Of a stretch of 64,000 nt of DNA, positions 2,645 to 47,412 are shown piece by piece (the first letter of the stretch is position 1; every line of letters begins with the position of its first letter). Source of the stretch: Candidatus Dojkabacteria bacterium (GTDB lineage Bacteria; Patescibacteriota; Dojkabacteria; SC72). The stretch is taken from the NCBI GenBank assembly GCA_018056375.1, contig JAGPFQ010000001.1:360340-424339 (forward strand). Reading direction: 5' to 3'. The translations under genes were made by a program, and so were the position numbers. Below the pieces are notes generated by a model, which saw nothing but the letters and a program-made list of their open reading frames with translations, made no database searches and was not told the DNA's origin.

Positions 2645-2660
2645 AAACCATTATATAAGC

Positions 2661-3479: not shown

Positions 3480-3497
3480 GTTGTAGTGTCTTAAGCC

Positions 3498-23139: not shown

Positions 23140-23281
23140 ATACTTACCTTTCTTTAATTCTAATATCAAAATTCACCCTTCATTATACCACCCTAGAACA
23201 TATTTTACAGAAAACAAAAGAAGTTAAATTTTTAATTTTACATTTAATCTAGAATTAATCTTTGTAGTGTAAGGTTTAAGT

Positions 23282-24393: not shown

Positions 24394-25335
24394 ATGCTAA
24401 AAGCATTGTTAATAGCACTCATCCTTTATACTCTCTTCCCTTGTACTATTATCAAACAAGGAGATTTTGAACTGATAGAAGGTATCTCTTCTCCTCATCA
24501 AGTAAGTTGGATATCTAATGAGGAGGTTTTGATTGTACAAGAGAAAGACATCTTTAAATACAATATTCTCTCCAAAGATTTAGAGAAGTTAGGAGAGAGA
24601 GAACCTAATTCTTTTGTAAGTGTAAATAGCAAGGGTGAGTTAATGTTTTGTGAATTTGAACATTTCATAATCCACTCACCTGAGGAGTTTTCAACAATCT
24701 TTAGAATTAAGGATATGGATAGGAATTTGATTAAGGAGATAAAGATATTTGAAACAATTAGACCGATATATATGGATGAGGAAGAGATTATTGCTGTTAC
24801 TGCTATGGATTTTTTAGAAGAGCATTTTTTCAAGATCAATATTGAAAGTGAAAAGAAAGAGGAGATAGATTCTCCTTACAGAAAATATTCTTTTGATATT
24901 CCTAAATATATTGATGTAAGAAGAGTGTTTGTGAGAAATGAGAACCTTTACATTATTGAGGATATGAATGGGAATCTAATTCTTTATAATAACTTAACGA
25001 GTACAAAGATAATAATTCCAATATTTACAGCTATCTTTAACCCTGTTCCTATTAAAAACCCTAAGAATGACACAAAACCTAATTTAATACTCTTCTTTAA
25101 GTCTTGCTTAGCAAAGATATATTCAAAGAGTGCTGCTCCTAAGAATGCCCCTATGAATACTCCCAAGATATTACCTACAATACCTCCTACTATTGAACCA
25201 ACGACTGAACCTATTGTTCCATATTTAGATCCTCCTGCTTTTTTAGTACCCAGTACTGCTGCTAATTCATCTGCAAAGGTTGAAAGGATCGATATAATTA
25301 AGAGAATAACTAATGTGAGTGGTGTAATGACTTGA
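24394..25335 (+). CDS. Hypothetical lipoprotein-like protein; the 3' ~350 nt overlap a convergent membrane-protein ORF, so the true C-terminus is uncertain (possible frameshift, pseudogene or genuine overlap)
   Basis: N-terminus MLKALLIALILYTLFPC (lipobox-like). The first ~200 aa look globular; the remainder is a Pro/Thr/Asn-rich antisense-like translation. Confidence 0.4.
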   Translation: MLKALLIALILYTLFPCTIIKQGDFELIEGISSPHQVSWISNEEVLIVQEKDIFKYNILSKDLEKLGEREPNSFVSVNSKGELMFCEFEHFIIHSPEEFSTIFRIKDMDRNLIKEIKIFETIRPIYMDEEEIIAVTAMDFLEEHFFKINIESEKKEEIDSPYRKYSFDIPKYIDVRRVFVRNENLYIIEDMNGNLILYNNLTSTKIIIPIFTAIFNPVPIKNPKNDTKPNLILFFKSCLAKIYSKSAAPKNAPMNTPKILPTIPPTIEPTTEPIVPYLDPPAFLVPSTAANSSAKVERIDIIKRITNVSGVMT

Positions 25336-25472
25336 AAACCCCCTATTGCACCTATTATCACTGTAGCTATATATACCAACCAGACACCCGGTAGGGAGAA
25401 GATTGTAGTTATTACACCTGCAACAGCTAGAACACCTGCTAAGATGTAGAGTAAGATTGTTCCAATACTCAC
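24984..25472 (-). CDS. DUF456-like small integral membrane protein
   Basis: Four hydrophobic helices with Gly-rich internal repeats (GSVVGSIVGGIVGNILGVFIGAFLGAAL); 162 aa. Confidence 0.55.
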   Translation of the reverse strand: MSIGTILLYILAGVLAVAGVITTIFSLPGVWLVYIATVIIGAIGGFQVITPLTLVILLIISILSTFADELAAVLGTKKAGGSKYGTIGSVVGSIVGGIVGNILGVFIGAFLGAALFEYIFAKQDLKKSIKLGFVSFLGFLIGTGLKIAVNIGIIIFVLVKLL

Positions 25473-26662
25473 ATTAACTTCTCAAAAATTTTAAAGGTTT
25501 CTGCTGCACATTTATCCCATGTAAATGTCAAAGACAAATCATATCCTTTCTGTATCATTGTTTGGTATTTCTCTCTGTTTTTGTAGATATCATATATCGT
25601 ACCCCCGACCTCTTCTTCATTTAATCCATCAACTAGCATTGAAACATCTTTAAAGATTTCTTCATATACAGGGTTTTTATGTAGTATGACTGGAGTTTTT
25701 GCTCTTAGTGCTTCTGCTACAGATATACCAAAACCTTCATAGAGGGAGAGATGAAGGAAACCTAAAGAGTTATTCAGTAAGGAGTATGCATATTTATCTT
25801 CATAGAAACCTGTAAATACAATTTTCTTCTCGATATTATTTGCTTCTATGTAATCATATAACTCTTTAACCTCTGGTTTAGTTGTGTCCTGAAACTTACC
25901 ACCTGCAATTACTAGATAAGGAGCATCCTCTATGTTTATACCATCATCTCTTACCTTGTCTAAAAATACTTTATATCCCTTTATCACCCCTATTGAATTC
26001 TTACTTCTGTTAATACCACCTCCTAAATAGATGAAATATTTTTTCTCCTTATAGTCATGAGGTAGTAATTTATCTAACGATATCTGTTTCTCTTCTATAT
26101 TAATCCCTAGGTATGTAAAATCTGTTTGTTCTACTGGATAATCAGGATAGAATTTAAGAAAATCTTTCCTTGTAGTATCGGAATTGCAAAGTATATATTT
26201 ACAATCCTTAGACTTATTTAATGTTATCCAATACTGTATCTTTCTAATGAAGTTGTGTATTGGTGATTGTTGAGAATACATATTAAAGAGGGGAAGATTC
26301 ATGTCATGAACAAAAAGTACTGTTGGCATAATATCAGAGGGAAAGTTTCTCCAGAAGTATGGGCAGAAGTATATACTATCCTCTCTCCTTATCTTCTTTA
26401 TAACAGGTAATACCTTTGTGTAATACCATATATCATTTTTGTAATCATTCACCCTATATTTTCCAATATCTACTAGCTGGGCATTTTTGTATTTTGATAT
26501 ATCCTTATCTAATGTTGATATCTTCTCTCTAAATCTTAGTATGCTGAATTGTACATTTGCATTGTTTCTAAGGAGTGCAAGAATTATATTCTTGGTATAC
26601 TGCCCAACACCCGCATATGAGAATTGGTCTTGGGTTGTAGTTGTATCTATTATGATATGCAT
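25469..26662 (-). CDS. Glycosyltransferase family 4/group 1
   Basis: C-terminal LSLYEGFGISVAEALRAKTPVIL (E-x7-E). Confidence 0.75.
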   Translation of the reverse strand: MHIIIDTTTTQDQFSYAGVGQYTKNIILALLRNNANVQFSILRFREKISTLDKDISKYKNAQLVDIGKYRVNDYKNDIWYYTKVLPVIKKIRREDSIYFCPYFWRNFPSDIMPTVLFVHDMNLPLFNMYSQQSPIHNFIRKIQYWITLNKSKDCKYILCNSDTTRKDFLKFYPDYPVEQTDFTYLGINIEEKQISLDKLLPHDYKEKKYFIYLGGGINRSKNSIGVIKGYKVFLDKVRDDGINIEDAPYLVIAGGKFQDTTKPEVKELYDYIEANNIEKKIVFTGFYEDKYAYSLLNNSLGFLHLSLYEGFGISVAEALRAKTPVILHKNPVYEEIFKDVSMLVDGLNEEEVGGTIYDIYKNREKYQTMIQKGYDLSLTFTWDKCAAETFKIFEKLM

Positions 26663-26905
26663 ATGATATATTACCTGTTTTTTTCTAAATAGTCATCTTT
26701 TTAGAAAAATTGTTTTTTACTTTGGATTTAATTCGGTCGAATTCGACGGGTTTAAAATTTAATATGGTTAATAAATAAATGTTTGCGGTAAAGATAGAGA
26801 ACGACTATAATGATAATAGTCAGAAGGGAGAGTGTAATCCTCAGCTTACAGGATTACAGGATTCTTAATAATATCTCCCCCTATTTATACTAAACACCTT
26901 CAAGT

Positions 26906-27910
26906 ATGATTAAAAATAATATCCAAAACAAAATAATAATATATGAAGGAAAAGGTGGACAACCAAAACTTGATGTACAAATAGATGGAGAAACTGTGTG
27001 GCTGACAATAGAACAAATGTCTCAACTTTTTGACAGAGGAAAATCAACAATAAATGAACATATTATTAATATATACAAAGAGGGGGAATTAGAACAAGAT
27101 ATTTCTATGAAGAAAATCGGAAATTCCGATTTTTCTACAAAACCTACTAACTACTATAATTTAGATGTAATCATATCCGTAGGATATCGAGTAAAATCTG
27201 TAAATGGTACTCGTTTTCGACAATGGGCAACAAAAAGATTAAGAGAATATATAATCAAAGGATTTACAATAGATGATGATAGATTGAAGAATGCAGGAGG
27301 AGGACAATATTGGAAAGAGCTTTTAGACCGTATCAGAGATATCAGAAGTAGTGAAAAAGTGTTATACCGACAAGTATTAGACCTGTATGCAACAAGCATC
27401 GATTACAACCCAAGCAGTAAAGAAACACAACAGTTCTTTGCTATCGTACAAAACAAATTGCATTATGCTGCCAATGGTAAGACAGCAGCGGAAATAATAT
27501 CAGAGAGAGCAGATGCAAAAAAACCTTTCATGGGACTCATGACCTTCTCTGGTAGAGGAATTATAAAGTCAGATGTTGTCATAGCGAAAAACTATCTGAA
27601 GGCTGAAGAAATAAAGAAGTTAAATAATGTAGTATCTGCATATTTTGATATAGCAGAATTAAGAGCCTTAGATAGGATACCAACCAAAATGAAGGACCAT
27701 ATTGAACAGTTAGATAAGCTAATTCTTTCGATGGATCGCAAAGTTCTAAAGAATGCTGGGAAAATTAGTCATACAGAAGCAGAAGCAAAGGCTCTACGAG
27801 AATACAAAAAATATCGAGTTAAAAACCTATCCAATGTTGAACAAACATATCTATCTTCAATAAACACCTTAGAGAAGAAAGTTAAAAAGAGTACAAAGCA
27901 AGAAGTTTAA
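26906..27910 (+). CDS. RhuM-family protein (Virulence_RhuM domain)
   Basis: IYEGKGGQPKLDVQIDGETVWLTIEQMSQLF...YNLDVIISVGYRVKSVNGTRFRQWATKRLREYIIKGF closely follows the conserved RhuM-family N-terminal block. Confidence 0.8.
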   Translation: MIKNNIQNKIIIYEGKGGQPKLDVQIDGETVWLTIEQMSQLFDRGKSTINEHIINIYKEGELEQDISMKKIGNSDFSTKPTNYYNLDVIISVGYRVKSVNGTRFRQWATKRLREYIIKGFTIDDDRLKNAGGGQYWKELLDRIRDIRSSEKVLYRQVLDLYATSIDYNPSSKETQQFFAIVQNKLHYAANGKTAAEIISERADAKKPFMGLMTFSGRGIIKSDVVIAKNYLKAEEIKKLNNVVSAYFDIAELRALDRIPTKMKDHIEQLDKLILSMDRKVLKNAGKISHTEAEAKALREYKKYRVKNLSNVEQTYLSSINTLEKKVKKSTKQEV

Positions 27911-27943
27911 GACTGGAGATCTCCAAGAAGAAGAAACACGATA

Positions 27944-28867
27944 TTACCCGTTTTTTTCTGAATAGCCATCTTTCTCCTGTCTGATTTCTTCTACATATTC
28001 AATTAACATCTCATATGATGTTGGTTGTTCCTCAAACTTAGTATTAATGAGTTGATTTGAAGGTGAAATAACTGGCCTAGGTGGAAGGTCTTTCTTCTCT
28101 ACTGGAATCACTGGCTTCTTTATCCCTTGAGCTTTAAGTATCTCTAATGCAAACTCATATCTAGAAAGTACATCTGAACTACACACATGATACACACCTG
28201 GCTCTATCTTAGATTCAACAGCTTCTTCAATTCTTCTTGTTAGATATCCAACATATGTAGGACAACCCTTTTCATCAGTAACAATTGTTAGGGGTTTCTC
28301 TTCAGTTGCTTCTGTATCAGTTACAAATTTAATGAAGTTTTTTGCACCTGGCCCATACAACCATGAAGTTCTAAATATGTAATATGTACCACCAACATTC
28401 TCAATATTTTCTTCTCCTCTTCTCTTACTTTTTGCATATTCATTTAGAGGATTAAACTCTTTACTTTCTTCATCATATTCTCCATCTCCAAATACTTCAT
28501 TGGTAGAAATATGTATGAATGGAATATTTAAATCTTTAGCAACTTCTGCCGTATATTTAGGAGCATCAGCATTTACAGCATTGGCTACTTCGGGTTCTGA
28601 TTCTGCTTGATTAACATTGGTATATGCTGCACAATTGATGACATAGTCAGGGTTTTGTTCGTGAACAAAATCTTTTAATTCTTTTTCATTGGTTATATCT
28701 TTACCATAGATACCTTTCTCTGCATCATCAAACATATCACTCTTAATTACCACATATCCTTTCTTTTTAAAATAGTTTGATAGATATGAACCTAACATTC
28801 CATTTGCACCAAATACTAGTATTTTCTTACCCATTGCTATATTAATTAAACTTAAATATGTCTTCAT
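27944..28867 (-). CDS. rfbD: dTDP-4-dehydrorhamnose reductase
   Basis: GKKILVFGANGMLGSYL...VINCAAYTNV...FIHISTNEVFGDG...YAKSK...IFRTSWLYG. The start may be Met at 28834. Confidence 0.75.
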   Translation of the reverse strand: MKTYLSLINIAMGKKILVFGANGMLGSYLSNYFKKKGYVVIKSDMFDDAEKGIYGKDITNEKELKDFVHEQNPDYVINCAAYTNVNQAESEPEVANAVNADAPKYTAEVAKDLNIPFIHISTNEVFGDGEYDEESKEFNPLNEYAKSKRRGEENIENVGGTYYIFRTSWLYGPGAKNFIKFVTDTEATEEKPLTIVTDEKGCPTYVGYLTRRIEEAVESKIEPGVYHVCSSDVLSRYEFALEILKAQGIKKPVIPVEKKDLPPRPVISPSNQLINTKFEEQPTSYEMLIEYVEEIRQEKDGYSEKNG

Positions 28868-29402
28868 CGCTTAAGTCTTTAAGTAATGGAGCCTCAGCAT
28901 CCTTGTCAGAGAGAATTGGTGTATCTATACCCCATGGGATATTTACATCTGGGTCATCCCATCTGAATGATCTTTCACTCTCTTTATCATATTTACCACT
29001 TACTTTGTATTCAAAATCAACATTATCTGTTAATGCTAAAAATCCATGAGCAAAACCTTTAGGTATGAAGAATCCTGTATGATTATCTTCTGTTAATTCA
29101 ACCATATGGAATTGTCCAAATGTAGGAGATCCTTTTCGAATATCTACAGCAACATCAATTGCTTTACCTCTAATCACTCTTACAAACTTATCCTGTGCAT
29201 TTGGTCCTATCTGCCAATGCATACCTCTTAAAACACCTTTCTTAGAGTTTGAATGATTATCTTTTACCCAATTTGTAGGCAAGCCTGCCTCTCTAAACTT
29301 ATCTTCATCATATGTTTCTTCAAAGTATCCTCTATCATCATGAAAAGCTTTGAGAGTTACTACTACCAATTCCGGTAGATGTTCTACTTTTTCAAATTCC
29401 AT
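28842..29402 (-). CDS. rfbC: dTDP-4-dehydrorhamnose 3,5-epimerase
   Basis: Cupin fold with FHDDRGYFEETY and conserved RGMHWQ, VDIRKGSPTFGQ. Confidence 0.85.
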   Translation of the reverse strand: MEFEKVEHLPELVVVTLKAFHDDRGYFEETYDEDKFREAGLPTNWVKDNHSNSKKGVLRGMHWQIGPNAQDKFVRVIRGKAIDVAVDIRKGSPTFGQFHMVELTEDNHTGFFIPKGFAHGFLALTDNVDFEYKVSGKYDKESERSFRWDDPDVNIPWGIDTPILSDKDAEAPLLKDLSDEDIFKFN

Positions 29403-29420
29403 ATGTTTAATATTTAAATA

Positions 29421-30509
29421 TTATTTAGCCAGCACCACTTTAGAATCATCTCCGATAAGTAGAGTATCTGCCTTAGGAAGTGATTCCTTTGTAGTTACCT
29501 CTGCATTCCAACCAATCAAAGAACTGTCTAATCTCTCATGAAGGTTATGTACATTACAATTCCCCATCAATATACTATTCTCTATTTCAGCATCTTTAAC
29601 TACACTACCTTCTCCAATAGATGTGAATGGTCCAATATATGCATTCTCAACAGTAACATTGTCTGCAATAGATATTGGTCCTCTTAAGATTGAGTTTTTA
29701 ACAATAGAACCCTTCCCTATCTCAACATTCCCTTCTATCTTACTATCCTTTACTTTACCCTTACACTCATCTAAACACTCTCTTTCAAGGATTAATCTGT
29801 TTGCTAAGATAAGGTCCTCTGGTGCTCCTGTATCCTTCCACCATCCTGTTACTTCTGATGCTGTGAAGGTATATCCATTTTCAATCAACCAGTTGTTAAT
29901 TACTGGAGGATAGTATTCTGGTTTACCTGTTCCCTTTGGATCTATTGGTTTTGCATAATCAAAAGCTTTAAATACAGCAGGTGTAAAGAAGTAGATGGCT
30001 GAGAGGACTAAATCACTTACAAACTCCTGTGGTTTCTCTACTGTATTTACAATCTTATCCCCTTTCATTACTGCAACACCAAAGTTTTGATAGTCTGGTC
30101 TTCTTACAACTAACACATGAGCATCTGATTTCTTCTTTTTAAAATCATCATAATGTTTTTGAAGACCACCTGTTAAGATATTATCACCAGCAGAGAAGAG
30201 GAATTCATCATCCCCTATTAACTTCTCAGCTAGTTTAATTGGATACATCATTCCATTTGGCTCTGGTTGTTCTATGTAGTGGAGCTTTACTCCCTTACCA
30301 AATCTTTTACCATCACCAAGTAGTTCTGGCATCTCCTTGTCCCCTTTATTGATGTTAATAATAACATCCTTAATTCCTAAATCTACTGCATCATTAATTA
30401 TTCTCTCTATCATTGGTCTGTTACCAATTGGTAACATATGTTTGTTTTTAGTATGTGTAAGAGGTCTTAGTCTTGTACCTCTACCACCTGCTAATATGAG
30501 TGCTTTCAT
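29421..30509 (-). CDS. rfbA: Glucose-1-phosphate thymidylyltransferase, long form (~360 aa with C-terminal left-handed beta-helix)
   Basis: MKALILAGGRGTRLRPLTHTKNKHMLPIGNRPMI; C-terminal hexapeptide-repeat region. Confidence 0.8.
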   Translation of the reverse strand: MKALILAGGRGTRLRPLTHTKNKHMLPIGNRPMIERIINDAVDLGIKDVIININKGDKEMPELLGDGKRFGKGVKLHYIEQPEPNGMMYPIKLAEKLIGDDEFLFSAGDNILTGGLQKHYDDFKKKKSDAHVLVVRRPDYQNFGVAVMKGDKIVNTVEKPQEFVSDLVLSAIYFFTPAVFKAFDYAKPIDPKGTGKPEYYPPVINNWLIENGYTFTASEVTGWWKDTGAPEDLILANRLILERECLDECKGKVKDSKIEGNVEIGKGSIVKNSILRGPISIADNVTVENAYIGPFTSIGEGSVVKDAEIENSILMGNCNVHNLHERLDSSLIGWNAEVTTKESLPKADTLLIGDDSKVVLAK

Positions 30510-30527
30510 ATATATGTGAATACTAAA

Positions 30528-31544
30528 TTAATCTAATCTTTTTTCTAAATATCTTTCTGCTTGTTTATCTGCTACTGGTTTTAGTGGCTCCCACCAATCC
30601 TTGTTATCCACATACCACTGTACTGTATCCTTTAACCACTCTTCTACACTCTTCTCTGGTTTGTAACCTAATTCTTTCTCAGATTTGGAGTTATCAATTG
30701 CATACCTTACATCATGACCTTTTCTGTCTCCTACATGAACCATGAGGGATTCTGGTTTGTTTAGATATTCCAATACTGTTTTTACAATCCATATGTTCTC
30801 TCTTTCACCATCACCACCAAAGAGATATGTTTCTCCTAACTTTCCATCCTTTATTGACAACTCAATACCTCGTACATGGTCTAATACATGTACCCAGTCT
30901 CTAATCTGTTTACCATCTCCATATACTGGTATCTCTTGATCTAACATTGCTCTAGTTACAATCAATGGTATTAATTTCTCTGGGTATTGATTTGGTCCAT
31001 AGTTGTTTGAGGTATTAGAGATTGTGATTGGTAATTTAAAGGTATGGAAGTATGCTCTGACTAAGTGATCTGATGCTGCTTTAGATGCAGAGTATGGACT
31101 TCTAGGTGCATATGGCATATCTTCTGTAAATTTTAATTCTGGTTTATCTATTGGTAATTCTCCAAATACTTCATCTGTTGATACATGATGGAATCTAATA
31201 CCACGATTTTGGAATGCTGCTTCTAGAAGGTTCTGTGTACCCATTACATTTGTTTTAATGAATACTTCTGGTCCTTCTATACTTCTATCTACATGTGATT
31301 CTGCAGCGAAGTGTACAATGAGATCGATACCTTTGGTTAGATCCATTACTAAGTCTTTGTCACATATGTCTCCTTTTACGAATTCATAATTTGGATTATT
31401 CTCTACCTCCTTTAGATTTTCTAGATTACCTGCATATGTTAGTAAATCTAGGTTTACTATTTTATCTTCTGGATATTTGTTCATCCAGTATTTTATGAAG
31501 TTTGAGCCTATGAAGCCGGCTCCACCTGTTACTAGGATTTTCAT
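30528..31544 (-). CDS. rfbB: dTDP-glucose 4,6-dehydratase
   Basis: MKILVTGGAGFIGSNF...; YxxxK region YSASKAASDHLVRAY; 338 aa. Confidence 0.9.
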   Translation of the reverse strand: MKILVTGGAGFIGSNFIKYWMNKYPEDKIVNLDLLTYAGNLENLKEVENNPNYEFVKGDICDKDLVMDLTKGIDLIVHFAAESHVDRSIEGPEVFIKTNVMGTQNLLEAAFQNRGIRFHHVSTDEVFGELPIDKPELKFTEDMPYAPRSPYSASKAASDHLVRAYFHTFKLPITISNTSNNYGPNQYPEKLIPLIVTRAMLDQEIPVYGDGKQIRDWVHVLDHVRGIELSIKDGKLGETYLFGGDGERENIWIVKTVLEYLNKPESLMVHVGDRKGHDVRYAIDNSKSEKELGYKPEKSVEEWLKDTVQWYVDNKDWWEPLKPVADKQAERYLEKRLD

Positions 31545-31657
31545 ATTATTTAATAATTATTAAATTTAGATATCCTAACGATTATAGGGTACAAGATTTA
31601 AAGGGAGATGGAAAGGGGTGGGGAATACCCATTCAAAAAATTTTTCAATCTAAAATC

Positions 31658-34564
31658 TTATTTAAAGTTTAATATCCCCATATCACTATGACCATAGTCA
31701 TACATGGTTGCAACCTCTTCAATTCCATTACCATTATAATCACCAGAAGTCACAAATCTTGTATTGGGTACAGACCATAAATATCTACCACTCCTGAACC
31801 AACTAGAGAGATTAAAGATGTTAGAATTAGACTTAAATACCAACATACCCATATCGCTATTACCATAATCATATACAGCTCCTATCTCTGCTTTTCCATC
31901 TCCATCATAATCCCCAGAGGTTACAAACCTTGTATTGGGTACAGACCATAAGTATCTACCACTCCTAAACCAAGTGGAAAGATTAAAGGTATTTAGATTA
32001 GATTGAAAGACTAATATCCCCATATCACTATGGCCATAATCATAAACGGCTCCTATCTCTGCTTTTCCATCTCCATTATAATCTCCAGAAGTTACAAATC
32101 TTGTACTGGGTACAGACCATAAATACCTACCACTCCTGAACCAACTAGAAAGATTAAAGGTGTTTAAATTAGATTTAAACACTAATATTCCCATATCGCT
32201 GTTACCATAATCATAAACAGCTGCTATCTCCGCATTCCCATCTCCATCATAGTCTCCAGAAGTCACAAACCTAGTATTTGGTACGGACCATAAATTCTTA
32301 CCACTCCTAAACCAAGTGAAGAGATCAAAGGAATAGGCATCAGACATAGACTTAAACACTAATATTCCCATATCGCTATTACCATAATCATATATTGCAG
32401 CTATCTCTGCTTTTCCATCTCCATCATAATCTCCAGAGGTCACAAACCTTGTCCTAGGAACCGACCACATATTTCGACCACTGCGAAACCATATAGAAAG
32501 ATCAAAGCTAGTCCCATTAGGTTTGAATACTAATACCCCCATATCATTATTTCCATAATCATATATTGCAGCTATTTCTGTTTTTCCATCTCCATCATAA
32601 TCTCCAGAGGTCAGGAACTTAGTGTTGGGAACAGACCATAAATATCTACCACTACGATACATCGAAGAAACTTCAAAGTAGTTTAAAATCTCTACAGTGT
32701 ATAATTCCTGAGCACCTCCAGATTTAGTAAATGTATATGTTGTGTTTTCAAAGAAGTTGTTGGAATCACCAGATGCTGGAGATATGGAGCCACCTGTTAA
32801 AGTAATCGTTGGTGCTAAATTTGTCTTAGGAATATCAGCAGGCATAGAACACTTTATTGTCTTTGTTCTTTCGCTCACAATACATGGGAATTCTATCCCT
32901 TCATAAGTAATCTTAAAAGATTCTATTATATCTCCCTGTACAGAAACTAAAGCATTGTATGCATTAACTCTTCTACCCGTAACAGTTTTTCCTGATAAAC
33001 TTGGTGCTAAATCTCCTGTGGTTAATATGGCATTCTTAGCCTCAGCAATAGTAAGGGTTGGTCTGTAAGAAAGTAGTAATGCTACAACCCCAGAGACATG
33101 TGGAGCGGCCATTGATGTCCCTTCCATATGAGCATAAGTCTGTTCCTTCTTATACAACCTAAGATTTGTAACTCCACACCCCCAATAATCATTGTCATAT
33201 CCATCTGTTTGCCAAGATAGAGCAAATTTAAACCTGTCAGTCAACATTGTAGAAGACAAATCAAACACTGCATCAGGAAGATATACTGAATGTGAATATA
33301 TTGGTACTCTAAAAGAACGAGGATTCTCATCTAAAACCCGCTCATCCCACCAAGCACCACCATGCCAAGTAAAGCCATTATCCCCACTAAAAGTAATACT
33401 CATCCTATCTGGTCCTAAAGTTGAAATTGGTGTGTCACACAACCAATCCATTTTTATTCTACCAGCATTACTACCAGATAAATTATAAGTTGGAGAAATT
33501 AAGTGAGTAAAAGAATTTGCCCCATAAGGTTTTCGTACATCACCATAGAGGAAATACATATATGGATTGTTATCTTCATCTGTGATAAATCTACTCCCCC
33601 AATAATTGAAATCCCCCAATCTTGCCCATCCTACAGGAATCCCCATATTAGGCACTTCCGCGAAATCCTCCTCTATAAGAGTCTTGTATGTTACAGTACT
33701 TAAAATATTCTGTCCAGGAGCTCCAACATCAACAGATACAACACCATAGTCAGAAAAGTCAACTAAATTATCATGTTGATTAGTAGCAGCTACACATATT
33801 ATATTATCTAAAGTATAGTCACAAGGATAGCTATGGTTTGTTGTTCCATCATCGTGATTCTTTGCACTATTACCAGCTGCAGCAATAAATAAACCAGAAA
33901 AATCATTTATAGCCTGTTTAAGAAACATATCTTCTTCTGAACCACCCCAGCTAGCATTTATAATATGAGCACCATTTTCTTCAGCAAAGTAAATCGCTAT
34001 AACTGAAGCAAAAGTATTGTAGTTTGTCTTCAAGGCCATAATTTTTGCATCTGGTGCAACACCTACAAGCCCTTTACGATTGTTTTCAGTTGCTGCTATC
34101 GTACCAGCAATATGAGTACCATGTGTATCCTCATAATCATTAGGATAAGGATTTTTGTCATTGGATTCATAATCATATCCGTGCAAACAGTCACCTAAGA
34201 AATCACCATCATGATTAACACAATTCGAACCATCCCACATACTGTTAATCAAATCTGGATGATTATATGCAACACCATCATCAATAACAGCAACAATAAC
34301 ACCCTCCCCTCCACTTCTAAGCCAAGCTTCTGGAGCATCGATATCTTTGTCAACTGTACCATACACCCCATTAACTCGCTGCCCAGTATTGTGCAAGCCC
34401 CACAACTCATTTCGATAAGGGTCATTTGTAGATATTGTATTTGGATAATAAATGAAGTTAGGTTGTACATATTCAACAGTTGGATTCTTACTTAATTCTG
34501 CCATTTTTTCATTAACAGATTTTCCATCAGTAATACTCACTAAAGAAGCATTTGCTTTTAACAT
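31658..34564 (-). CDS. Subtilisin-like (S8) serine peptidase with six C-terminal FG-GAP/integrin-alpha-like calcium-binding repeats; N-terminal signal/propeptide is separated by a frameshift (see 34639-34980)
   Basis: Catalytic triad contexts VIDDGVAYNHPDL (D), HGTHIAGTIAA (H), GTSMAAPHVSGVVALL (S); 6x ~50-aa repeats FRSGRYLWSVPNTRFVTSGDYDGDGKAEIAAVYDYGNSDMGILVFKS. Confidence 0.85.
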   Translation of the reverse strand: MLKANASLVSITDGKSVNEKMAELSKNPTVEYVQPNFIYYPNTISTNDPYRNELWGLHNTGQRVNGVYGTVDKDIDAPEAWLRSGGEGVIVAVIDDGVAYNHPDLINSMWDGSNCVNHDGDFLGDCLHGYDYESNDKNPYPNDYEDTHGTHIAGTIAATENNRKGLVGVAPDAKIMALKTNYNTFASVIAIYFAEENGAHIINASWGGSEEDMFLKQAINDFSGLFIAAAGNSAKNHDDGTTNHSYPCDYTLDNIICVAATNQHDNLVDFSDYGVVSVDVGAPGQNILSTVTYKTLIEEDFAEVPNMGIPVGWARLGDFNYWGSRFITDEDNNPYMYFLYGDVRKPYGANSFTHLISPTYNLSGSNAGRIKMDWLCDTPISTLGPDRMSITFSGDNGFTWHGGAWWDERVLDENPRSFRVPIYSHSVYLPDAVFDLSSTMLTDRFKFALSWQTDGYDNDYWGCGVTNLRLYKKEQTYAHMEGTSMAAPHVSGVVALLLSYRPTLTIAEAKNAILTTGDLAPSLSGKTVTGRRVNAYNALVSVQGDIIESFKITYEGIEFPCIVSERTKTIKCSMPADIPKTNLAPTITLTGGSISPASGDSNNFFENTTYTFTKSGGAQELYTVEILNYFEVSSMYRSGRYLWSVPNTKFLTSGDYDGDGKTEIAAIYDYGNNDMGVLVFKPNGTSFDLSIWFRSGRNMWSVPRTRFVTSGDYDGDGKAEIAAIYDYGNSDMGILVFKSMSDAYSFDLFTWFRSGKNLWSVPNTRFVTSGDYDGDGNAEIAAVYDYGNSDMGILVFKSNLNTFNLSSWFRSGRYLWSVPSTRFVTSGDYNGDGKAEIGAVYDYGHSDMGILVFQSNLNTFNLSTWFRSGRYLWSVPNTRFVTSGDYDGDGKAEIGAVYDYGNSDMGMLVFKSNSNIFNLSSWFRSGRYLWSVPNTRFVTSGDYNGNGIEEVATMYDYGHSDMGILNFK
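31661..32580. repeat. Six tandem ~150-bp coding repeats (period ~144-150 nt) at the 3' end of the S8 peptidase gene
   Basis: Repeated DNA blocks (...ccatatcgctattaccataatcatatac...ggtacagaccataaatatctaccactcctgaaccaa...) visible directly in the sequence. Confidence 0.8.
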
Positions 34565-34638
34565 ACTATTCTTTTTTTGTAAACCTTTCCCTTTTAAAAA
34601 TATTTCCTCCTTCTTCCCTAAAGTTTTGGAATTTAGTT

Positions 34639-34980
34639 CTATATGTAAGAAGACTTATATTTTATTATTAACTCTCCCTCCACAAACAAAGGCTTTGTAT
34701 AGATTTCATTAAAATGCTCAGAATCTTTAATCTTCGTAGAAGAAACATAACCAAAGATGTCCTTGCTCAATAACAATTTGTTATCGATGTCTGGATTCTG
34801 CTGAGAAACTTTTAGTTCTTTAAGTACACTACTAGTATTCACATCAACTGGAAACTCTTGATTAATAGGTGTTGATATTGCACAGACATTAACAGGCAAA
34901 GATAATTTGAAGAGGAAAAGGGATAGGAACAAAATTAAAAAGAGCACAAACAAAAGTTTAGAACAAAATAAATTTTTCAT
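34639..34980 (-). pseudogene. Signal peptide + N-terminal part of a peptidase-inhibitor-I9-like propeptide, frame-shifted relative to the S8 peptidase ORF (disrupted 5' part of the same gene)
   Basis: MKNLFCSKLLFVLFLILFLSLFLF signal; ...GELIIKYKSSYI stop. The -1-shifted frame continues as ...HIELNSKTLGKKEEIFLKGKGLQKKNSMLKANASLVSITDG... into the peptidase ORF. A single-nucleotide indel between 34642 and 34654 would fuse the two. Confidence 0.6.
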
Positions 34981-35154
34981 CCTAATGCTTCTTAAATAAT
35001 TAAACTTAATAAAAGAGCTACCCTACACTATTTTGATATATTAACATTGACTATTTCATTTTTCAACTTTATGTTTTTCTCCAAATCTAAGAAGTAGAAG
35101 GTTGTTTTTTAGGTTTTTCAAAAGAGGAGGCTTTGAAGAGAAAAGAGCCATGTC

Positions 35155-35883
35155 CTACCCAATCCAATTACGTATTTCTTTTAACTTCTCATACTCAGGC
35201 ATCTTGTTCTTCCACTTTTTAGGATTCTTAGATGCAACTGAGATTATATATGTAATCTCATATGGTTCTCTTCTATAGTTTTCATAAATAATACTCATAC
35301 CATTCTCTTCAGCGAGTCTTTCTAAAGCAGATGGTGTATATCTCCAATAATCTCTAAAACCCTCCATTTCATGCTGTTGCTGGATAAATGGAACAACAGT
35401 TATCACAATATCTCTACTCATCTTTGCAAGATTTTTGTAAGCCTTTCTAGCATCAAAAATATGTTCTAAAACTGTATGATTAAAAACAACATCAAACCTA
35501 TTAACCAACTCCTTTTTTAAATCTTCTTCCAAATCTAACTCTATTTCGTTCTTTCTATCAGGTAAATGTTGACTGTAATTAGTTATCGTATAAGATGTTG
35601 CTTTAGGAAAATAATCTTTATAATAACCACCATCCTTATCTTTATCCTCCCACCCAGAGACATTAACAACATCACCTTCAAACAAACCTGAAAACTTTTT
35701 TAGTTCTACATTAGACCATGTACGAACTGGATCCGCATTTGGTTCGTATTCATAAGAATGGTTTTCTTCTACATTGTTTTTCTTTAGTATTTTTGACTTC
35801 ATACTTCGTAAAAAGTCCGAAACTTTAATTGCTAACTTAACTGATCTACGATTTAATAACTCCATTGCTTTAGAATATTTCAT
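35155..35883 (-). CDS. Putative class I SAM-dependent methyltransferase
   Basis: FDVVFNHTVLEHIFD resembles the Methyltransf_11 post-II/III region; no clean GxGxG seen. Confidence 0.45.
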   Translation of the reverse strand: MKYSKAMELLNRRSVKLAIKVSDFLRSMKSKILKKNNVEENHSYEYEPNADPVRTWSNVELKKFSGLFEGDVVNVSGWEDKDKDGGYYKDYFPKATSYTITNYSQHLPDRKNEIELDLEEDLKKELVNRFDVVFNHTVLEHIFDARKAYKNLAKMSRDIVITVVPFIQQQHEMEGFRDYWRYTPSALERLAEENGMSIIYENYRREPYEITYIISVASKNPKKWKNKMPEYEKLKEIRNWIG

Positions 35884-36506
35884 TTTGTGTTATGAGGGTG
35901 AAATAAAAAATAAGGATTAATTACTCCATCCATATTATAGATGTTAATATCTATTGTCTTAAAGTCTAATTCTGGGAATTTGGATAGTGCAAAGGGAAAT
36001 GTTAATTGATCTCTGTAGCTATATGTGCATATTAGTTCCCACCATAATCTTCCGAACTCTTTAGCTTTTGTATTTCTGTATATGATGCCACATGCATATA
36101 CTGGAGTTGTATCTACACTCAAACCTCCTGATTTATATAACTGTTCAATATTCTTTATCTGTTTATCATTTACATATCCAGCATCCTTACAAGCATTTAT
36201 CTCATCTCTAATTGTTTTGTTAAAAGGATGTTTAAACACACATAAATCCCCACTAAAAAGTTTTTCAAAACCTTCTCTATCAAGAATCTCTAAATTAGAA
36301 TCTATCCATATATCATAGTTTAGAGGATTGAGTACCTTATATAACTTTGCCATGAGTCTAGGAGATAGATGTTCTGCACAACCATCAAAGATATTATTCT
36401 TTTCATTAAAAATTTTATCTGCATCTTTTTGTTGATTATCATAATCTCCAAAGTTTGCAGTATATAGAAGTTTTTTGCTTTTTAACAGGTCTTTAAGTAT
36501 ACTCAT
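35880..36506 (-). CDS. Hypothetical protein, possibly a DUF616/TOD1-like glycosyltransferase
   Basis: N-terminal LLYTANFGDYDN pattern reminiscent of the IFGxYD block of the DUF616 family; weak. Confidence 0.35.
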   Translation of the reverse strand: MSILKDLLKSKKLLYTANFGDYDNQQKDADKIFNEKNNIFDGCAEHLSPRLMAKLYKVLNPLNYDIWIDSNLEILDREGFEKLFSGDLCVFKHPFNKTIRDEINACKDAGYVNDKQIKNIEQLYKSGGLSVDTTPVYACGIIYRNTKAKEFGRLWWELICTYSYRDQLTFPFALSKFPELDFKTIDINIYNMDGVINPYFLFHPHNTK

Positions 36507-37425
36507 GTATCAAATAGTATACACTAATAAAATGAGAAATAAAGAATGGAAATATAATACTCCCGTATTTGAATATCTAAGAGATCTTTCAGTTGTAGAA
36601 GCCCCATGGGGAGGACATAATTTTTTCGCATATGATTTAGTGGTAAACTTTCGCCCTGCTACAGTTGTAGAATTAGGGACATTCAAAGGATATTCGCTGT
36701 TTTCTTTTTCACAAGCAGTTAAGGATTGTAAATTAAAAACCAAAATACATGCCGTGGATACATGGGAAGGAGATAAACATGCAGGTTTTTTTGGAGATGA
36801 GTTATACAAAGAGTTCAAAAAAGTTTTAGATAAACACTATCAAGATTTGGATATTATCTTACATAGAAAAACTTTTGATGATGCAGTTGAAGAGTTTCAA
36901 AATAATAGTATAGATATATTGCATATTGATGGTTTACATACATACAAGGCTGTTAAGCATGATTTTGAAACATGGCTACCTAAAGTAAAAAAAGATTCTG
37001 GTGTTATTTTGCTCCATGATATTTATGTAAAAAGAGATGATTTTGGTGTCCACAAACTTTGGGCAGAGTTAAAGAAGAAGTATAAAAACACTATAAGTTT
37101 TAAACATTCCAACGGATTGGGAGTTATTCTTTTAGGCACACAGAACATAACAGATAACCCAAAAGATTTCGCAGTCTACTATCAGTATCTAGCAGAGTCA
37201 CAATATAATAAGAAATATGTTGAAGTGTTAGAAGGACAGATAAAACAGAAAGAATCAGAAATACAAGAGTATGATAAGAATTTAAGAATCTGCATCAAAC
37301 AAAGAGAAAGTCTCAAAGAGGACACTTTACTTTTAATGGAAAAAGTAAAAGAATTTGAAGATTTCAAAAAGACAAAGATATGGAAATCTCTAACAGCATG
37401 GAGAAGAATTAAGAGCAAGCTCTAA
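36475..37425 (+). CDS. Class I SAM-dependent methyltransferase (Methyltransf_24/CmcI-like) with C-terminal coiled-coil
   Basis: ATVVELGTFKGYSLFSFSQA...ILHIDGLHTYKAVKHDFETWLPKV...GVILLHDI; C-terminal heptad-like KQKESEIQEYDKNLRICIKQRESLKEDTLLLMEKVKEFEDFKK. The start may be the internal Met at 36505 or 36532, because the track ORF overlaps the divergent upstream gene. Confidence 0.6.
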   Translation: MLFNRSLSILMYQIVYTNKMRNKEWKYNTPVFEYLRDLSVVEAPWGGHNFFAYDLVVNFRPATVVELGTFKGYSLFSFSQAVKDCKLKTKIHAVDTWEGDKHAGFFGDELYKEFKKVLDKHYQDLDIILHRKTFDDAVEEFQNNSIDILHIDGLHTYKAVKHDFETWLPKVKKDSGVILLHDIYVKRDDFGVHKLWAELKKKYKNTISFKHSNGLGVILLGTQNITDNPKDFAVYYQYLAESQYNKKYVEVLEGQIKQKESEIQEYDKNLRICIKQRESLKEDTLLLMEKVKEFEDFKKTKIWKSLTAWRRIKSKL

Positions 37426-38990
37426 GACTCACGAACTTCTTTATGGATTTTCTTCCAAGGAAACAAAGAAAATATTAGAAGAATATAACCTAAAAATACC
37501 GTTATATGAACAGGAGAAACATACCTATCCACTATCGCACCTGTAAATGCATGCAGTAACACATGTAGAAAACTGTATACTAATAGTATAATAACTAAAG
37601 GCAAGATTCTTCTGGAATAAACTCTCTTCCTCTTTATTGATACAAAATAAAGAATCAAAGCTATAACCAACATAAAAGGAAGTAATAAGATAGAATAATT
37701 TGTAACCACAATACTTAGATTTTTATTTAAACCAAGTATGAAACTCGTAATAATAGGAGGATTAACTTTCTGCTCATAGTCAACAACCCTTGTATATAAT
37801 TCAGGAGTCATATGAAAAATATTAGATTTCTCTTTTAGAAGATTTGTTGCAATAATACAGTTTTGATAACAATGCTTGGGTAAAAAATTCTCTTCAATAA
37901 CCAGTAAAGAATCCTGCTTGGATTCGGAATCTGCTTCTGGCTCAACTTCAATCATTTCAAACTTATAGATATTTGATAATACCAAATAGTTATTTAAGTA
38001 CGATTTGAGAACAATACTAGGATGTCTAACAATCACATTTAGTACAAACTTAAGACCAGAAGAACTCGTGATTAAACCCTCCTCATTGAGTTCTATCTTT
38101 AAGCTATCTATAACTTTACCCTCATCATTATAAACTTCAATTTCTTCAGGAATCTCAGAACTGTTAAAATGCCAAGGTGTATCTAACTCTGTTAATGCAG
38201 CAACTAACTGGAAACCTGCAACATTCTTTGGTGTCCTATTTGTATTTCTATCAATACCTTTGTATTCTAATATCTTATTCCAAGCAAACAAAGAAATAAA
38301 TAAACTTAAAAGAGAAAAACAAAAGACAAAGAATATTTGTAACCTCTTCTTCCAAGGCTTAAGTTCCCAAAGAGATAGAAAGACAGCTGCCAGCAACGGA
38401 AAGAACACTATACTCAAATATGGTTGTTTTAAAAACCAAGCAAAGGGAAACATTAACACAAAGTAGATACACAAGAATAGATAGCCTTTTTTATTACCTT
38501 TCCCAACAACATCCAATAATTTCCAAGCTAGAAAACAAGAGATTACTGATACTGTCATAGCAACAAACTCAGTTAATAGGGAATGATAATAACCATATAT
38601 AATTGGGTTTAGAATAACTAAAACTGTAAAAAGTACATAAATCACTGTCTTCAACTTTGGTTTATCCTTTATAACAAGATCTAAAATCTTCTTGGAAAAG
38701 ACTAGCATGAAAAGATAGAAGAAAAAAGAAAACAGTAAAAGACCCATTGTACTTTTCCCAAACAAGACATTGCTTAAATGAATTAATAGTGGGAAAATGG
38801 GTCCTCTAACTATGTCCCAAGTAGAGAAAGGGAGTTTTCTCTCAAATATTGCCACATATTCCATATAGTGAGCACTATCCCACAGTATCAAAACTGGAAA
38901 AGAGAAAAAAAATACAACCAAAACTATAAGTAACAAGAGCTTATAATTACTTTTTATCCAATCTAAAACTTTCTTTAATGATTCTCTCAT
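37422..38990 (-). CDS. Polytopic membrane protein (>=10 TM), candidate GT-C-fold glycosyltransferase (PMT/ArnT/YfhO-like)
   Basis: Multiple hydrophobic helices in the N-terminal two-thirds, hydrophilic loop region in the C-terminal third; sits in a glycosylation cluster next to a GtrB-like gene. Function inferred. Confidence 0.45.
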   Translation of the reverse strand: MRESLKKVLDWIKSNYKLLLLIVLVVFFFSFPVLILWDSAHYMEYVAIFERKLPFSTWDIVRGPIFPLLIHLSNVLFGKSTMGLLLFSFFFYLFMLVFSKKILDLVIKDKPKLKTVIYVLFTVLVILNPIIYGYYHSLLTEFVAMTVSVISCFLAWKLLDVVGKGNKKGYLFLCIYFVLMFPFAWFLKQPYLSIVFFPLLAAVFLSLWELKPWKKRLQIFFVFCFSLLSLFISLFAWNKILEYKGIDRNTNRTPKNVAGFQLVAALTELDTPWHFNSSEIPEEIEVYNDEGKVIDSLKIELNEEGLITSSSGLKFVLNVIVRHPSIVLKSYLNNYLVLSNIYKFEMIEVEPEADSESKQDSLLVIEENFLPKHCYQNCIIATNLLKEKSNIFHMTPELYTRVVDYEQKVNPPIITSFILGLNKNLSIVVTNYSILLLPFMLVIALILYFVSIKRKRVYSRRILPLVIILLVYSFLHVLLHAFTGAIVDRYVSPVHITVFLGYILLIFSLFPWKKIHKEVRES

Positions 38991-38997
38991 ATCTCAT

Positions 38998-41007
38998 TTA
39001 ATTATGATCATATAAGTGGTAAAGCCAGTTACCAAACTTCTTTAAAAGCTTCTTAACAAAATTAGGAACAAACTTGTTTAGAACCTTTATGATAGACAGC
39101 CCTTTTGATACATAAGGAGGATGTGAACCTTGCTGATTATTCTTCATAATCTTCTTTTCTTCCTCTGTAATTGTCTTTTTCTTATCAGAGATTGGTTTTT
39201 CATTCTTAAAAATAGTAAGAAACTTATCTACTGCCTCATCATAATCAAAGTCTTTAATTTTATTTTGGTTATAAGCCTTCATTTTATTCCATACTTCAGG
39301 ATTATGAATAAGATATACAATCTTATTAAAATACTCTGTACTATTATTTATTCGATCAATGATATATCCTGTCTTTCCATCCTCCATATAGTCAAGAACT
39401 CCAAAGGAGTTAGACATTATTGGAACGCATCCTGAAGCCATAGCCTCTAGTCCTATCAATCCAAAACCCTCATTAACGGAAGTATCTACATAAACATCAC
39501 TCTCTTGTAGTATTTTTATTAACTCTAAATTTGGAACAACACCATAGGTTACATTCATCTTGTTATTCTCAATAGAAGGAAGTTCTATATCTTCATTAAT
39601 ACATAAGACATTAAAAACTAACCCTGCCTCTTTGTTATCTAACTCCTTCATGATATCCATCAAAATATAATCTGCCTTCATAACATTATCACGCAATATA
39701 AAAGCTATGTTCTTAACTTTTTCCCTCCGGTTTTCTTTTTGAATTAAGTCATAATTAATACCATTTCTGACTAGATACAAATCTTTTCCAAAAATATCTT
39801 TAATCTTATTTTGCAAGTATGTAGAAATTGTAATTTCATAATCTGCCAATTTATGTGTCAATTCAACACTTCGATAATGCAAACCATTCTCAAAATAGTT
39901 TTCATATCCTTGGACAAAATTCACTAAAGGAACTTTTTTCTCTTTTGCTAATTCATATGCTTTAAAAACAGATGCCCATATCGTAGAGACTATGCGTTTT
40001 ATGTCAAAATCTATATCTCTTGTTTGTTTAATAGGTACAAAAAGCATCTGCTCCTTGTAGTCATCCATTACTTCATAAAGTATGTTAGACTCATGTCCAT
40101 TTATCACAAACTTATTAACTAAATCAACAACTACATGTGTCCCCCCTGCTGACTGAAGTATTCCCGGCAAGTAAAAAAGTGTGTCCAAAGAAATCTTCTT
40201 ATCTTCCTCTGTTATCTGAGATTTAACATATTCCATTGGGTCATTCTTTGAATATTTCTGCATTGTTGCTTCATACTCATCACCCCACCTAGAAAAAAAC
40301 AATCCTCTATTCTTATCAATTCTTTTCTGTTTTTCAGGAGAATTACCAAAGGAGGCCTCCGCCTTATGATATACATACGTATCTATTGCTACTTTTGCAG
40401 TAAAACCTTTAGACATGGCTAGGAATTGATAATCTGTTTCTTCTCCATATCCTAAACCATAAGATTCGTCTAGCTTACCAACTTTTTCAACACATTCTTT
40501 AGTAATCATTAGACAGTTCCCTACTACAGTACAAGCATCAAAAATCTTTCCCTGGAACTTGCTTTCAAGAAGGGCATCCATTTTCATATAACTAAACCCT
40601 TCAAAAATCTCTAAGGAAAGGTTTGCTGCATTGTTAGAGAGGGGAGAAATTAAACCAATCTTCTTATCTTTCTCCATATGGTTCATTAATTTTCCAATCG
40701 TGTTTTTTGCAACAATACAATCTGAGTTTAGGAGAAGAATATAGTCAGAAGAACAAAGTCCCAAACCCTTATTTACATTTTTAACAAAGCCCAAATTCTC
40801 ATTATTAGTAACAACCTTTATTTTTGAGCCATATTTTTTCTTTAAATTCCTCAAAAGACTTTTTGTTGTCTGATTAGAAGCATCATCCATCAGAAATACA
40901 TTTCCCAAAAGTTCTGGAGGGGTATTGATAAAGAGGGAATATACACACAACTTAACCCAATCGGGAGCATTGTAAACAGGAATAATAACATCACATTTCT
41001 TTTTCAT
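38998..41007 (-). CDS. Bifunctional glycosyltransferase: N-terminal GT2 domain + C-terminal GT4 domain
   Basis: GT2: DVIIPVYNAPDWVKLCVYSL...LMDDASNQTT...LLLNSDCIV; GT4: EGFGLIGLEAMASGCVPIMSNSFGVLDYMEDGKTGYII. Confidence 0.8.
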   Translation of the reverse strand: MKKKCDVIIPVYNAPDWVKLCVYSLFINTPPELLGNVFLMDDASNQTTKSLLRNLKKKYGSKIKVVTNNENLGFVKNVNKGLGLCSSDYILLLNSDCIVAKNTIGKLMNHMEKDKKIGLISPLSNNAANLSLEIFEGFSYMKMDALLESKFQGKIFDACTVVGNCLMITKECVEKVGKLDESYGLGYGEETDYQFLAMSKGFTAKVAIDTYVYHKAEASFGNSPEKQKRIDKNRGLFFSRWGDEYEATMQKYSKNDPMEYVKSQITEEDKKISLDTLFYLPGILQSAGGTHVVVDLVNKFVINGHESNILYEVMDDYKEQMLFVPIKQTRDIDFDIKRIVSTIWASVFKAYELAKEKKVPLVNFVQGYENYFENGLHYRSVELTHKLADYEITISTYLQNKIKDIFGKDLYLVRNGINYDLIQKENRREKVKNIAFILRDNVMKADYILMDIMKELDNKEAGLVFNVLCINEDIELPSIENNKMNVTYGVVPNLELIKILQESDVYVDTSVNEGFGLIGLEAMASGCVPIMSNSFGVLDYMEDGKTGYIIDRINNSTEYFNKIVYLIHNPEVWNKMKAYNQNKIKDFDYDEAVDKFLTIFKNEKPISDKKKTITEEEKKIMKNNQQGSHPPYVSKGLSIIKVLNKFVPNFVKKLLKKFGNWLYHLYDHN

Positions 41008-41962
41008 CAGCTTTACCTCTTAATAATTTATTTATCTCTCGCCCCACCCACAACACCACAAACAACACAACTAATACAATAACAATAACCCCCCTATCTA
41101 ATAATGCTAATTGCATAATCTGTTCATTACTAATACCTAGTATATCAGAAGTAATAGAGAAAATCCCCTCTCTAATACCCAATGACCCAGGTGTAATACT
41201 AACTAACAATGATACTCCTGATAAACAGTTGTACAAGATAACATTCATAATACTAACATCTATACCCAAACCTCTAAATTCAAAATAATACAAAAAACCT
41301 GTTGAAATAAAAAAGACAACAGATATACCTATTAAACTCAACAACAATCCTTTATCTTCCACAATCATATTCCAACCCTCAGACACCTTCCTAATTATCT
41401 CCAATACCTTATCTAAAAATTTAAACTTACTCTTGTTGTTCTTCTTTGCAGGTATCTTAAGAAAAGTTAAAATTAACATACCTACAAACAACAACCCAAA
41501 GAAAAGATACAATGGTAATGAACTAACTCCATACTTCAATGTAATTACTAATAAAGATATTAACCCCATAAAAGAGTTAACCAAAAACAGGACAATGTAA
41601 TAACCATATAGAGTAGATACAAAATGGGTATATGGAAAATCAAACCTCTTCTTCAAATACACAGACCTAATAACAGTACCTCCATGTAAAGGAAGAAAAT
41701 AATTACCAAGAGAAGACATTACAGAAACATAGAAAGATTCTAAAACAGAAATAACTTTCTTAAATGATTTAAGTGTAACTTTAATAAAGATACCATTAAT
41801 AAAAAAAGAAACAGATGCTAATAGAAAAATTAGAATTAGATATTTCAAAGGTGTTTGAAACACTGTCTGTAAATCAGACTTATGATTAAAAAAGTAGTAA
41901 ACAAAATACCCTAACACCCCTAAAGTTATAATAACCTTTAAATATTTCCAAATCTTTTTCAT
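40991..41962 (-). CDS. Flippase-like polytopic membrane protein (LPG-synthase-TM/UPF0104-like)
   Basis: ~8 TM helices, 323 aa, in a glycan cluster; family assignment tentative. Confidence 0.45.
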   Translation of the reverse strand: MKKIWKYLKVIITLGVLGYFVYYFFNHKSDLQTVFQTPLKYLILIFLLASVSFFINGIFIKVTLKSFKKVISVLESFYVSVMSSLGNYFLPLHGGTVIRSVYLKKRFDFPYTHFVSTLYGYYIVLFLVNSFMGLISLLVITLKYGVSSLPLYLFFGLLFVGMLILTFLKIPAKKNNKSKFKFLDKVLEIIRKVSEGWNMIVEDKGLLLSLIGISVVFFISTGFLYYFEFRGLGIDVSIMNVILYNCLSGVSLLVSITPGSLGIREGIFSITSDILGISNEQIMQLALLDRGVIVIVLVVLFVVLWVGREINKLLRGKADEKEM

Positions 41963-41963
41963 C

Positions 41964-44720: not shown

Positions 44721-44740
44721 AGTATTAAGTTCTTTTTAGA

Positions 44741-46015: not shown

Positions 46016-46063
46016 ATGTGTTTTTTGTAAAATAACTAAGCTATTATATTCCAAAGATACATA

Positions 46064-47410: not shown

Positions 47411-47412
47411 AG

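Follow-up and report, generated by a model that had tools for sequence, protein, structure and literature searches.

A recent AT duplication that very probably inactivates a secreted S8A subtilase gene in one lineage of Candidatus Dojkabacteria

We analysed a stretch of 64,000 nucleotides (nt) from a Candidatus Dojkabacteria bacterium (GenBank assembly GCA_018056375.1, contig JAGPFQ010000001.1, positions 360,340 to 424,339; hereafter the window), in which a gene for a subtilase of the S8 peptidase family is split into two open reading frames (ORFs) by a duplicated AT dinucleotide. The split is very probably due to a recent, lineage-private mutation that inactivates an otherwise intact gene; the product of this gene, a secreted and probably cell-surface S8A subtilase, is widely conserved in these Patescibacteria, or Candidate Phyla Radiation (CPR) bacteria. 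The copy in the window is as such an ordinary strain-specific pseudogene, the product of a kind of event already known. An initial annotation, based solely on the letters of the window and its ORFs, had left three explanations side by side, namely a real inactivating mutation, a sequencing indel and a programmed frameshift; we favour the first, find the second unlikely and reject the third.

One subtilase gene in two reading frames

The gene and its fragments, as defined from the ORF list and a three-frame translation, are as follows.

31658..34980, minus strand: whole S8 subtilase pseudogene, whose intact form has 1,106 codons
34980..34639, minus strand: ORF-A, the 5' fragment, 113 amino acids (aa), starting with MKNLFCSKLLFVLFLILFLSLFLF and ending in ...GELIIKYKSSYI-TAG; it holds the signal peptide (residues ~1-34), a linker and the prodomain strand beta1 (99-108)
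34641-34639, minus strand: TAG stop codon of ORF-A
34641..34644, minus strand: ATAT, in which the AT that intact alleles have once is present twice; which 2 base pairs (bp) of the four are taken as the extra ones is arbitrary
34565..34654, minus strand: stranded prodomain coding segment, in the ORF-B frame but 5' of the first start codon of ORF-B
34564..31658, minus strand: ORF-B, the 3' fragment and S8 peptidase, 968 aa, whose first residue is Met139 of the intact protein; it holds only beta3-alpha2-beta4 of the prodomain, then the catalytic and C-terminal domains, and no signal peptide

The frame of ORF-B relative to ORF-A is -1 (equivalently +2). It is open from 34654, directly past a TAA at 34657-34655, and reads VFLHIELNSKTLGKKEEIFLKGKGLQKKNS-M, the first start codon in this frame being the ATG at 34564; the residues N-terminal to Met139 are ELNSKTLGKKEEIFLK... 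Both frames are open together only in the 13 nt GTCTTCTTACATA (34654-34642), which contain no homopolymer. The adjacent frames and their homopolymer-free overlap are thus as the initial annotation had described them. Within the stranded segment, 34565-34639 encodes residues 114-138 of the intact protein (ELNSK...QKKNS), which form helix alpha1 and most of strand beta2, while 34640-34654 is only the two-frame overlap with the tail of ORF-A.

GenBank lists the two fragments as separate genes, ORF-A as a hypothetical protein (MBP8979232.1, KBG23_02030) and ORF-B as an S8 family serine peptidase (MBP8979231.1). ORF-A has a hydrophobic core at residues 9-24 (mean Kyte-Doolittle (KD) hydropathy 3.27) and a cleavage-type site, VCA|IS; the first 80 residues of ORF-B reach a KD maximum of 1.16. 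The protease as annotated, starting at Met139, lacks a signal peptide, as had been pointed out from the sequence.

ORF-A and ORF-B are two pieces of one S8 protease gene and not a chance juxtaposition, because their fusion matches a single prodomain model across the junction and equals an intact protein, P0001. The conceptual fusion (...KYKSSYI+ELNSK...) matches positions 14-81 of the prodomain family PF22148 across the junction (E-value 2.2e-9, 38 bits versus a cut-off of 21). ORF-B alone matches only positions 49-81 of 81, together with Peptidase_S8 and FG-GAP, and ORF-A alone has no Pfam match. When a 680-residue fusion was used as the query of a database search, P0001, a protein of 1,106 aa from another metagenome, was found to be 100% identical over the whole query; at the junction it reads ...GELIIKYKSSYIELNSKTLGKKEEIFLKGKGLQKKNSMLKANASL..., exactly the predicted fusion. 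The next matches, P0002 (57%) and P0003 (52%), have the same order of prodomain, S8 and FG-GAP domains and, like 40 further homologues, run across the junction without a break. A profile scan of the GTDB genome collection located relatives encoded at 80 genome loci, none above 48% identity and mostly from Patescibacteria, to which the best all belong; many of these matches begin at query residue ~99, which is the start of the prodomain. The initial annotation had proposed to align the fused protein to intact orthologues, and had named orthologues that begin at the downstream Met behind a separate upstream gene as the observation that would speak against a split gene. Orthologues and near-identical strains alike proved to be single continuous ORFs, and no relative examined shows the two-gene arrangement. 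The proposal of an S8 protease gene split by a frameshift is therefore supported by the prodomain match, by P0001 and by the continuous orthologues.

The family assignment rests on the catalytic domain. ORF-B matches PF00082 with an E-value of 1.8e-49 (cut-off 21.8 bits), and D233, H286, N370 and S622, the catalytic triad and the oxyanion Asn, are invariant in 44 aligned homologues. The Asp, His, Ser triad and oxyanion-hole Asn of subfamily S8A are thus present in a sequence that matches the family. The continuous pre-pro-enzyme ORF that also defines S8A is interrupted in the window at 34641-34644 and is found in 11 conspecific records; likewise, no single polypeptide of the window carries a complete PF22148 prodomain.

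The lesion is a 2-bp tandem duplication of AT that itself generates the stop codon, since TAC ATA GAA (Y112 I113 E114) of the intact allele became TAC ATA TAG in the window. A base-by-base comparison with an intact contig (L002, ENA ERZ28614776) over 31567-37940 (6,374 aligned bases) revealed 13 single-nucleotide polymorphisms (SNPs) and one indel, namely two extra window bases at 34644-34643. On this alignment the +1/-1 frameshift of the initial annotation is a real frameshift but a 2-bp duplication, not a single-base shift. Removing one AT gives a 3,321-nt ORF of 1,106 codons with no internal stop, the product of which differs from those of the intact alleles, including P0001, by one residue (T580 versus A580). 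Within the gene 1-3 SNPs separate the alleles, all of them nonsynonymous, a number too small to interpret as a ratio of nonsynonymous to synonymous substitution rates (dN/dS).

Alleles of the site in conspecific assemblies

Exact-pattern scans for either allele in JGI metagenome contigs and GTDB genome contigs gave no match; the species is absent at this locus from both collections. The alleles were therefore surveyed by way of the neighbouring genes: conspecific contigs were gathered through exact-protein look-ups of these genes and the site was then genotyped, at 16 loci which correspond to 13 distinct contigs.

A single AT, the intact allele, was found in 11 distinct records (ERZ28614776, ERZ15185560, ERZ21942150, ERZ2647912, SRR26883127, SRR24902094, ERR12982444, SRR20999784, SRR24902070, SRR20818706 and SRR24902082), the entry for SRR26883127 standing for itself plus 12 similar places. 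ATAT, the broken allele, was found in three records and nowhere else in the survey: the window, the Logan assembly of SRR11088405, which is 100% identical to the window over 7.8 kb, and ERZ25038371, a 591-bp ENA contig that is also 100% identical to it. No allele of (AT)3 or longer occurs among the 13 distinct contigs, which have one or two units only. Seven of the 11 intact records lie 0-5 SNPs from the window over ~5 kb, and the other four 12-54 SNPs. One of them, L085 (ERZ21942150), has 0 SNPs relative to the window over 4,754 bp, the 2-bp indel being the only difference.

The intact allele is the common state, both in the species and in the orthologues. Judging from the sequences compared, the ATAT allele is derived, rare and very recent: the event is very young, because outside the lesion the gene shows a single amino-acid difference and no decay, and because L085 carries no SNP over 4.75 kb. 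The sequence-level marks of a frameshift pseudogene are present: the length of the indel is not divisible by 3, close relatives carry the gene intact and the derived state is confined to one lineage.

Two observations on individual contigs may be added. In L086 (ERZ2647912, a 169.7-kb contig), the intact allele at 2001-5288 was called as a protein of 1,095 aa, from a GTG located 11 codons downstream of the usual ATG, and the alignment of this contig with the window has 6 gap openings over 7.3 kb. Ten of the 13 SNPs that separate the window from L002 fall in 245 bp (37008-37252) inside a Methyltransf_24 gene (36475-37425), a cluster that looks like a short recombination tract, not evenly spread divergence.

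Expected consequences of the insertion and rival explanations

The intact protein consists, in order, of a signal peptide, a ~70-aa linker, a Fervidolysin-type N-prodomain, the S8 catalytic domain, beta-sandwich domains and six FG-GAP-like modules. Modelling it with AlphaFold2 (mean predicted local distance difference test (pLDDT) 77.8) gave the following layout, to which the repeat tract of the gene is added.

Residues 5-23: signal-peptide helix in the AlphaFold2 model
Residues 24-94: linker, pLDDT < 50, probably disordered
Residues 99-176: prodomain, pLDDT 76-95 by 10-residue block
Prodomain elements: beta1 99-108, alpha1 121-130, beta2 133-139, beta3 144-149, alpha2 155-163, beta4 168-176
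Residues ~430-614: beta-rich insert of ~180 aa in the S8 domain, after the oxyanion Asn region and before the catalytic Ser
Residues 786-1105: repeated beta-strand modules in the model
31670..32653, minus strand: tandem repeat of a 171-bp unit, with 5.7 copies at ~80% identity, encoding the C-terminal FG-GAP-like modules of 57 aa

The repeat tract at 31670-32653 is a possible site of copy-number change or assembly collapse; the full-length alleles examined are all of equal length.

According to this model the stop after residue 113 falls between beta1 and alpha1, and Met139, the start of ORF-B, is the last residue of beta2. The initial annotation had placed the break between the signal/propeptide start and the catalytic body; the split itself is confirmed, but the break lies inside the prodomain and not between the prodomain and the catalytic body. 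The AT duplication turned the codons of Y112-I113-E114 into TAC ATA TAG, which imposes an immediate stop and moves everything downstream to another frame. Sec export requires a signal peptide, and subtilase prodomains are intramolecular chaperones. Given what is known of Sec signal peptides and propeptides, ORF-A, the N-terminal piece of 113 aa, is predicted to be exported and to have no function. The 968-aa ORF-B, if translated at all, would stay cytoplasmic with half a prodomain and would not mature to an active protease. The strain is thus expected to have lost the active secreted protease, because ORF-B has no signal peptide and only half a prodomain.

Whether the insertion is real bears first on this reading. 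A sequencing, assembly or consensus error, under which the organism would have a single AT and an intact gene, is unlikely: three assemblies produced by different software (the NCBI metagenome-assembled genome (MAG), Logan and a SPAdes-style ENA assembly) share the same 2-bp insertion with 100% identical flanks, and the ATAT site is not a homopolymer. ERZ25038371 is moreover probably derived from a different, low-abundance sample, because a read set giving the 645-kb MAG and the 16-kb Logan contigs would not give 591 bp at 0.6x. The 64-kb window yielded no further broken gene, and no further indel separates it from L083, L085 and L099-L106; an overlap of two ORFs (12614-13402 and 13242-14426), considered as a second broken gene, was rejected as a start-codon artefact, the Bac_transf domain beginning at residue 54. 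Some points nevertheless weigh against a real mutation. The three ATAT records are possibly not independent, as they may share reads or a sampling site, and SRR11088405 or a sister run may have been the source of the NCBI MAG. The undecayed state of the rest of the gene, which fits a very recent event, would fit an artefact too. An error would also agree with the intact allele of L085 on an otherwise identical haplotype and with the k-mer coverage of just 0.6 of the ERZ25038371 contig. If the insertion is real, it might also have been favoured. That ATAT represents a selected loss or a reversible off-state of a surface protease, reflecting diversifying selection on host or phage interaction, is an improbable reading, based on the position of the gene, in an episymbiotic CPR bacterium, within a surface locus that varies between strains and has flanking glycosyltransferase, methyltransferase and rhamnose genes, and on the unrelated S8 protease and SocA/Panacea toxin-antitoxin pair that another strain has in this slot. 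Reversible phase variation proper, in which slipped-strand gain and loss of AT would toggle the surface protease, is very unlikely. Both allele states do exist on backgrounds without SNP differences over 4.75 kb, the protein is a surface or secreted one in a strain-variable surface-glycosylation neighbourhood, and a different S8 gene occupies the same slot in another strain. Contingency loci, however, use long tracts, typically of 5 or more dinucleotide units, for useful switching rates, while the AT tract here has merely one or two units and never reaches (AT)3 in the survey, and the off state is limited to one lineage or sample set.

The remaining alternatives grant the insertion and suppose that a function survives it. 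That a programmed -1 (or +2) ribosomal frameshift or other recoding yields a full-length protease can be suggested from the 13-nt overlap of the two frames and from an AAGGAGG located ~30 nt downstream of the stop, but this is exceedingly unlikely. The overlap GTCTTCTTACATA has neither an X XXY YYZ heptamer nor another slippery motif, and the target frame is closed at the sole in-phase heptamer of ORF-A, which lies 320 nt upstream at 34975. No stimulatory RNA structure was detected in 131 nt around and downstream of the site (minimum free energy -12.8 kcal/mol versus a shuffle mean of -14.97, z = +0.77), 152 of the 200 shuffles folding at least as well as the native sequence. The AAGGAGG encodes K-K-E-E and is also present in intact alleles, the stop codon is made by the insertion itself, and the arrangement is not conserved, the 11 conspecific records and all orthologues being single-frame. 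The frameshift option of the initial annotation, and the search for slippery heptamers it had called for, thus find neither motif nor structure nor conservation. Reassignment of the stop codon was rejected as well, as reading through the TAG is of no help when the ORF-A frame meets a TAA two codons on. A functional split, in which ORF-B would be an intracellular protease translated from Met139 and ORF-A a separate small secreted protein, agrees with the two GenBank genes and with the complete catalytic triad retained by ORF-B; we regard it as highly improbable. There is no ATG, GTG or TTG in the ORF-B frame before 34564 and no Shine-Dalgarno sequence near this ATG, the only AAGGAGG lying 41 nt upstream of it, so that ORF-B would start without a ribosome-binding site. 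It would also bear a broken chaperone domain, starting, in the model, at the last residue of beta2. No relative has the two-gene arrangement, which arose through a 2-bp change in a single lineage. A recent inactivating mutation of one gene is accordingly the explanation that we retain as very probable.

Known relatives and genomic neighbourhood

By sequence, the closest solved relatives are S8A subtilases of the thermitase/deseasin type (3VV3, 1THM/1TEC and AK.1 protease 1DBI). A phmmer search of the PDB matched deseasin MCP-01 (3VV3) with an E-value of 3.9e-52, in two stretches that flank the insert, and fervidolysin (1R6V) with 8e-20. With the former type the window protein shares a catalytic domain with the Asp-His-Ser triad and oxyanion Asn, but it differs by the ~180-aa insert, the beta-sandwich domains and the six FG-GAP-like modules, and by the gene being broken here. 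With fervidolysin (PF22148) it shares a beta-alpha-beta-beta-alpha-beta N-prodomain directly before the catalytic domain, a fold predicted by the model at 99-176; the C-terminal domains are unlike, and the prodomain of the window is cut after beta1, so that neither ORF encodes the whole domain.

The locus resembles the ordinary frameshift pseudogenes of bacterial genomes and MAGs, with a small indel and halves annotated as a hypothetical protein and a truncated enzyme; nothing substantive sets it apart, and it is notable only for how recent it is. Programmed -1 frameshift sites such as those of dnaX and of insertion sequence (IS) element transposases likewise have overlapping frames that encode parts of one protein, but differ in their slippery heptamer, stimulatory structure and conserved frameshift, all of which the window locus lacks. 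Searches of the literature on the run and sample accessions, or on Dojkabacteria and subtilisin, returned nothing useful.

The protease gene lies in chromosomal DNA of ~33% G+C content, with the following surroundings.

35038..35066, minus strand: promoter-like site TTGAAA-17-TAATAT, its second hexamer preceded by TG, at a distance of ~60 nt upstream from the ATG of ORF-A
27944-31544, same strand as the protease gene and downstream of it: rmlB/A/C/D-type dTDP-rhamnose cluster
35155-49290, upstream of the protease gene: run of glycosyltransferase and methyltransferase genes
20230-23169, further off: SecA
60628-62133, further off: CysRS

The promoter-like site occupies the position expected for the promoter of the full-length gene; it is a consensus match only, and such sites are not enriched in the region.

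The slot of the protease gene is strain-variable, since a related strain holds a different S8 gene cassette there. On its contig (L097, ENA ERZ22666005, 238.6 kb), the rml genes are 95-99% identical to window 26028-31621. The slot, for which positions 1-4500 of L097 were compared with window 31545-35155, lies between the upstream methyltransferase-like gene (with a 78% identical tail) and rmlB and contains a different S8 peptidase of 864 aa, 23% identical and with its own signal peptide, as well as a SocA_Panacea antitoxin-like gene and a 155-aa gene.

Within one Dojkabacteria species most strains thus have an intact protease in the slot, one lineage has lost it by the knock-out and another has a different protease cassette in its place, a modest hint that secreted proteases may be dispensable or variable accessories in reduced genomes. 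Current understanding is not challenged. For annotation, MBP8979232.1 and MBP8979231.1 are the two parts of a single pseudogene, and neither a novel small protein nor a functional protease should be counted from them.

Three minor features of the neighbourhood are worth recording. A gene for a RhuM-family 'virulence protein' (26906-27910, plus strand, E-value 2e-103) separates the rhamnose genes from a glycosyltransferase, lying on the opposite strand, and is also found at the same place in L097. An AAA_14/DUF4143 ATPase gene (49306-50526, minus strand) is embedded in the glycosyltransferase cluster. Lastly, a 313-aa ORF with no Pfam match (24394-25335, plus strand) overlaps a 162-aa DUF456 ORF on the opposite strand (24984-25472, minus strand) by ~350 bp. 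Probably either one of these ORFs as a whole or the 3' part of the longer one is spurious.

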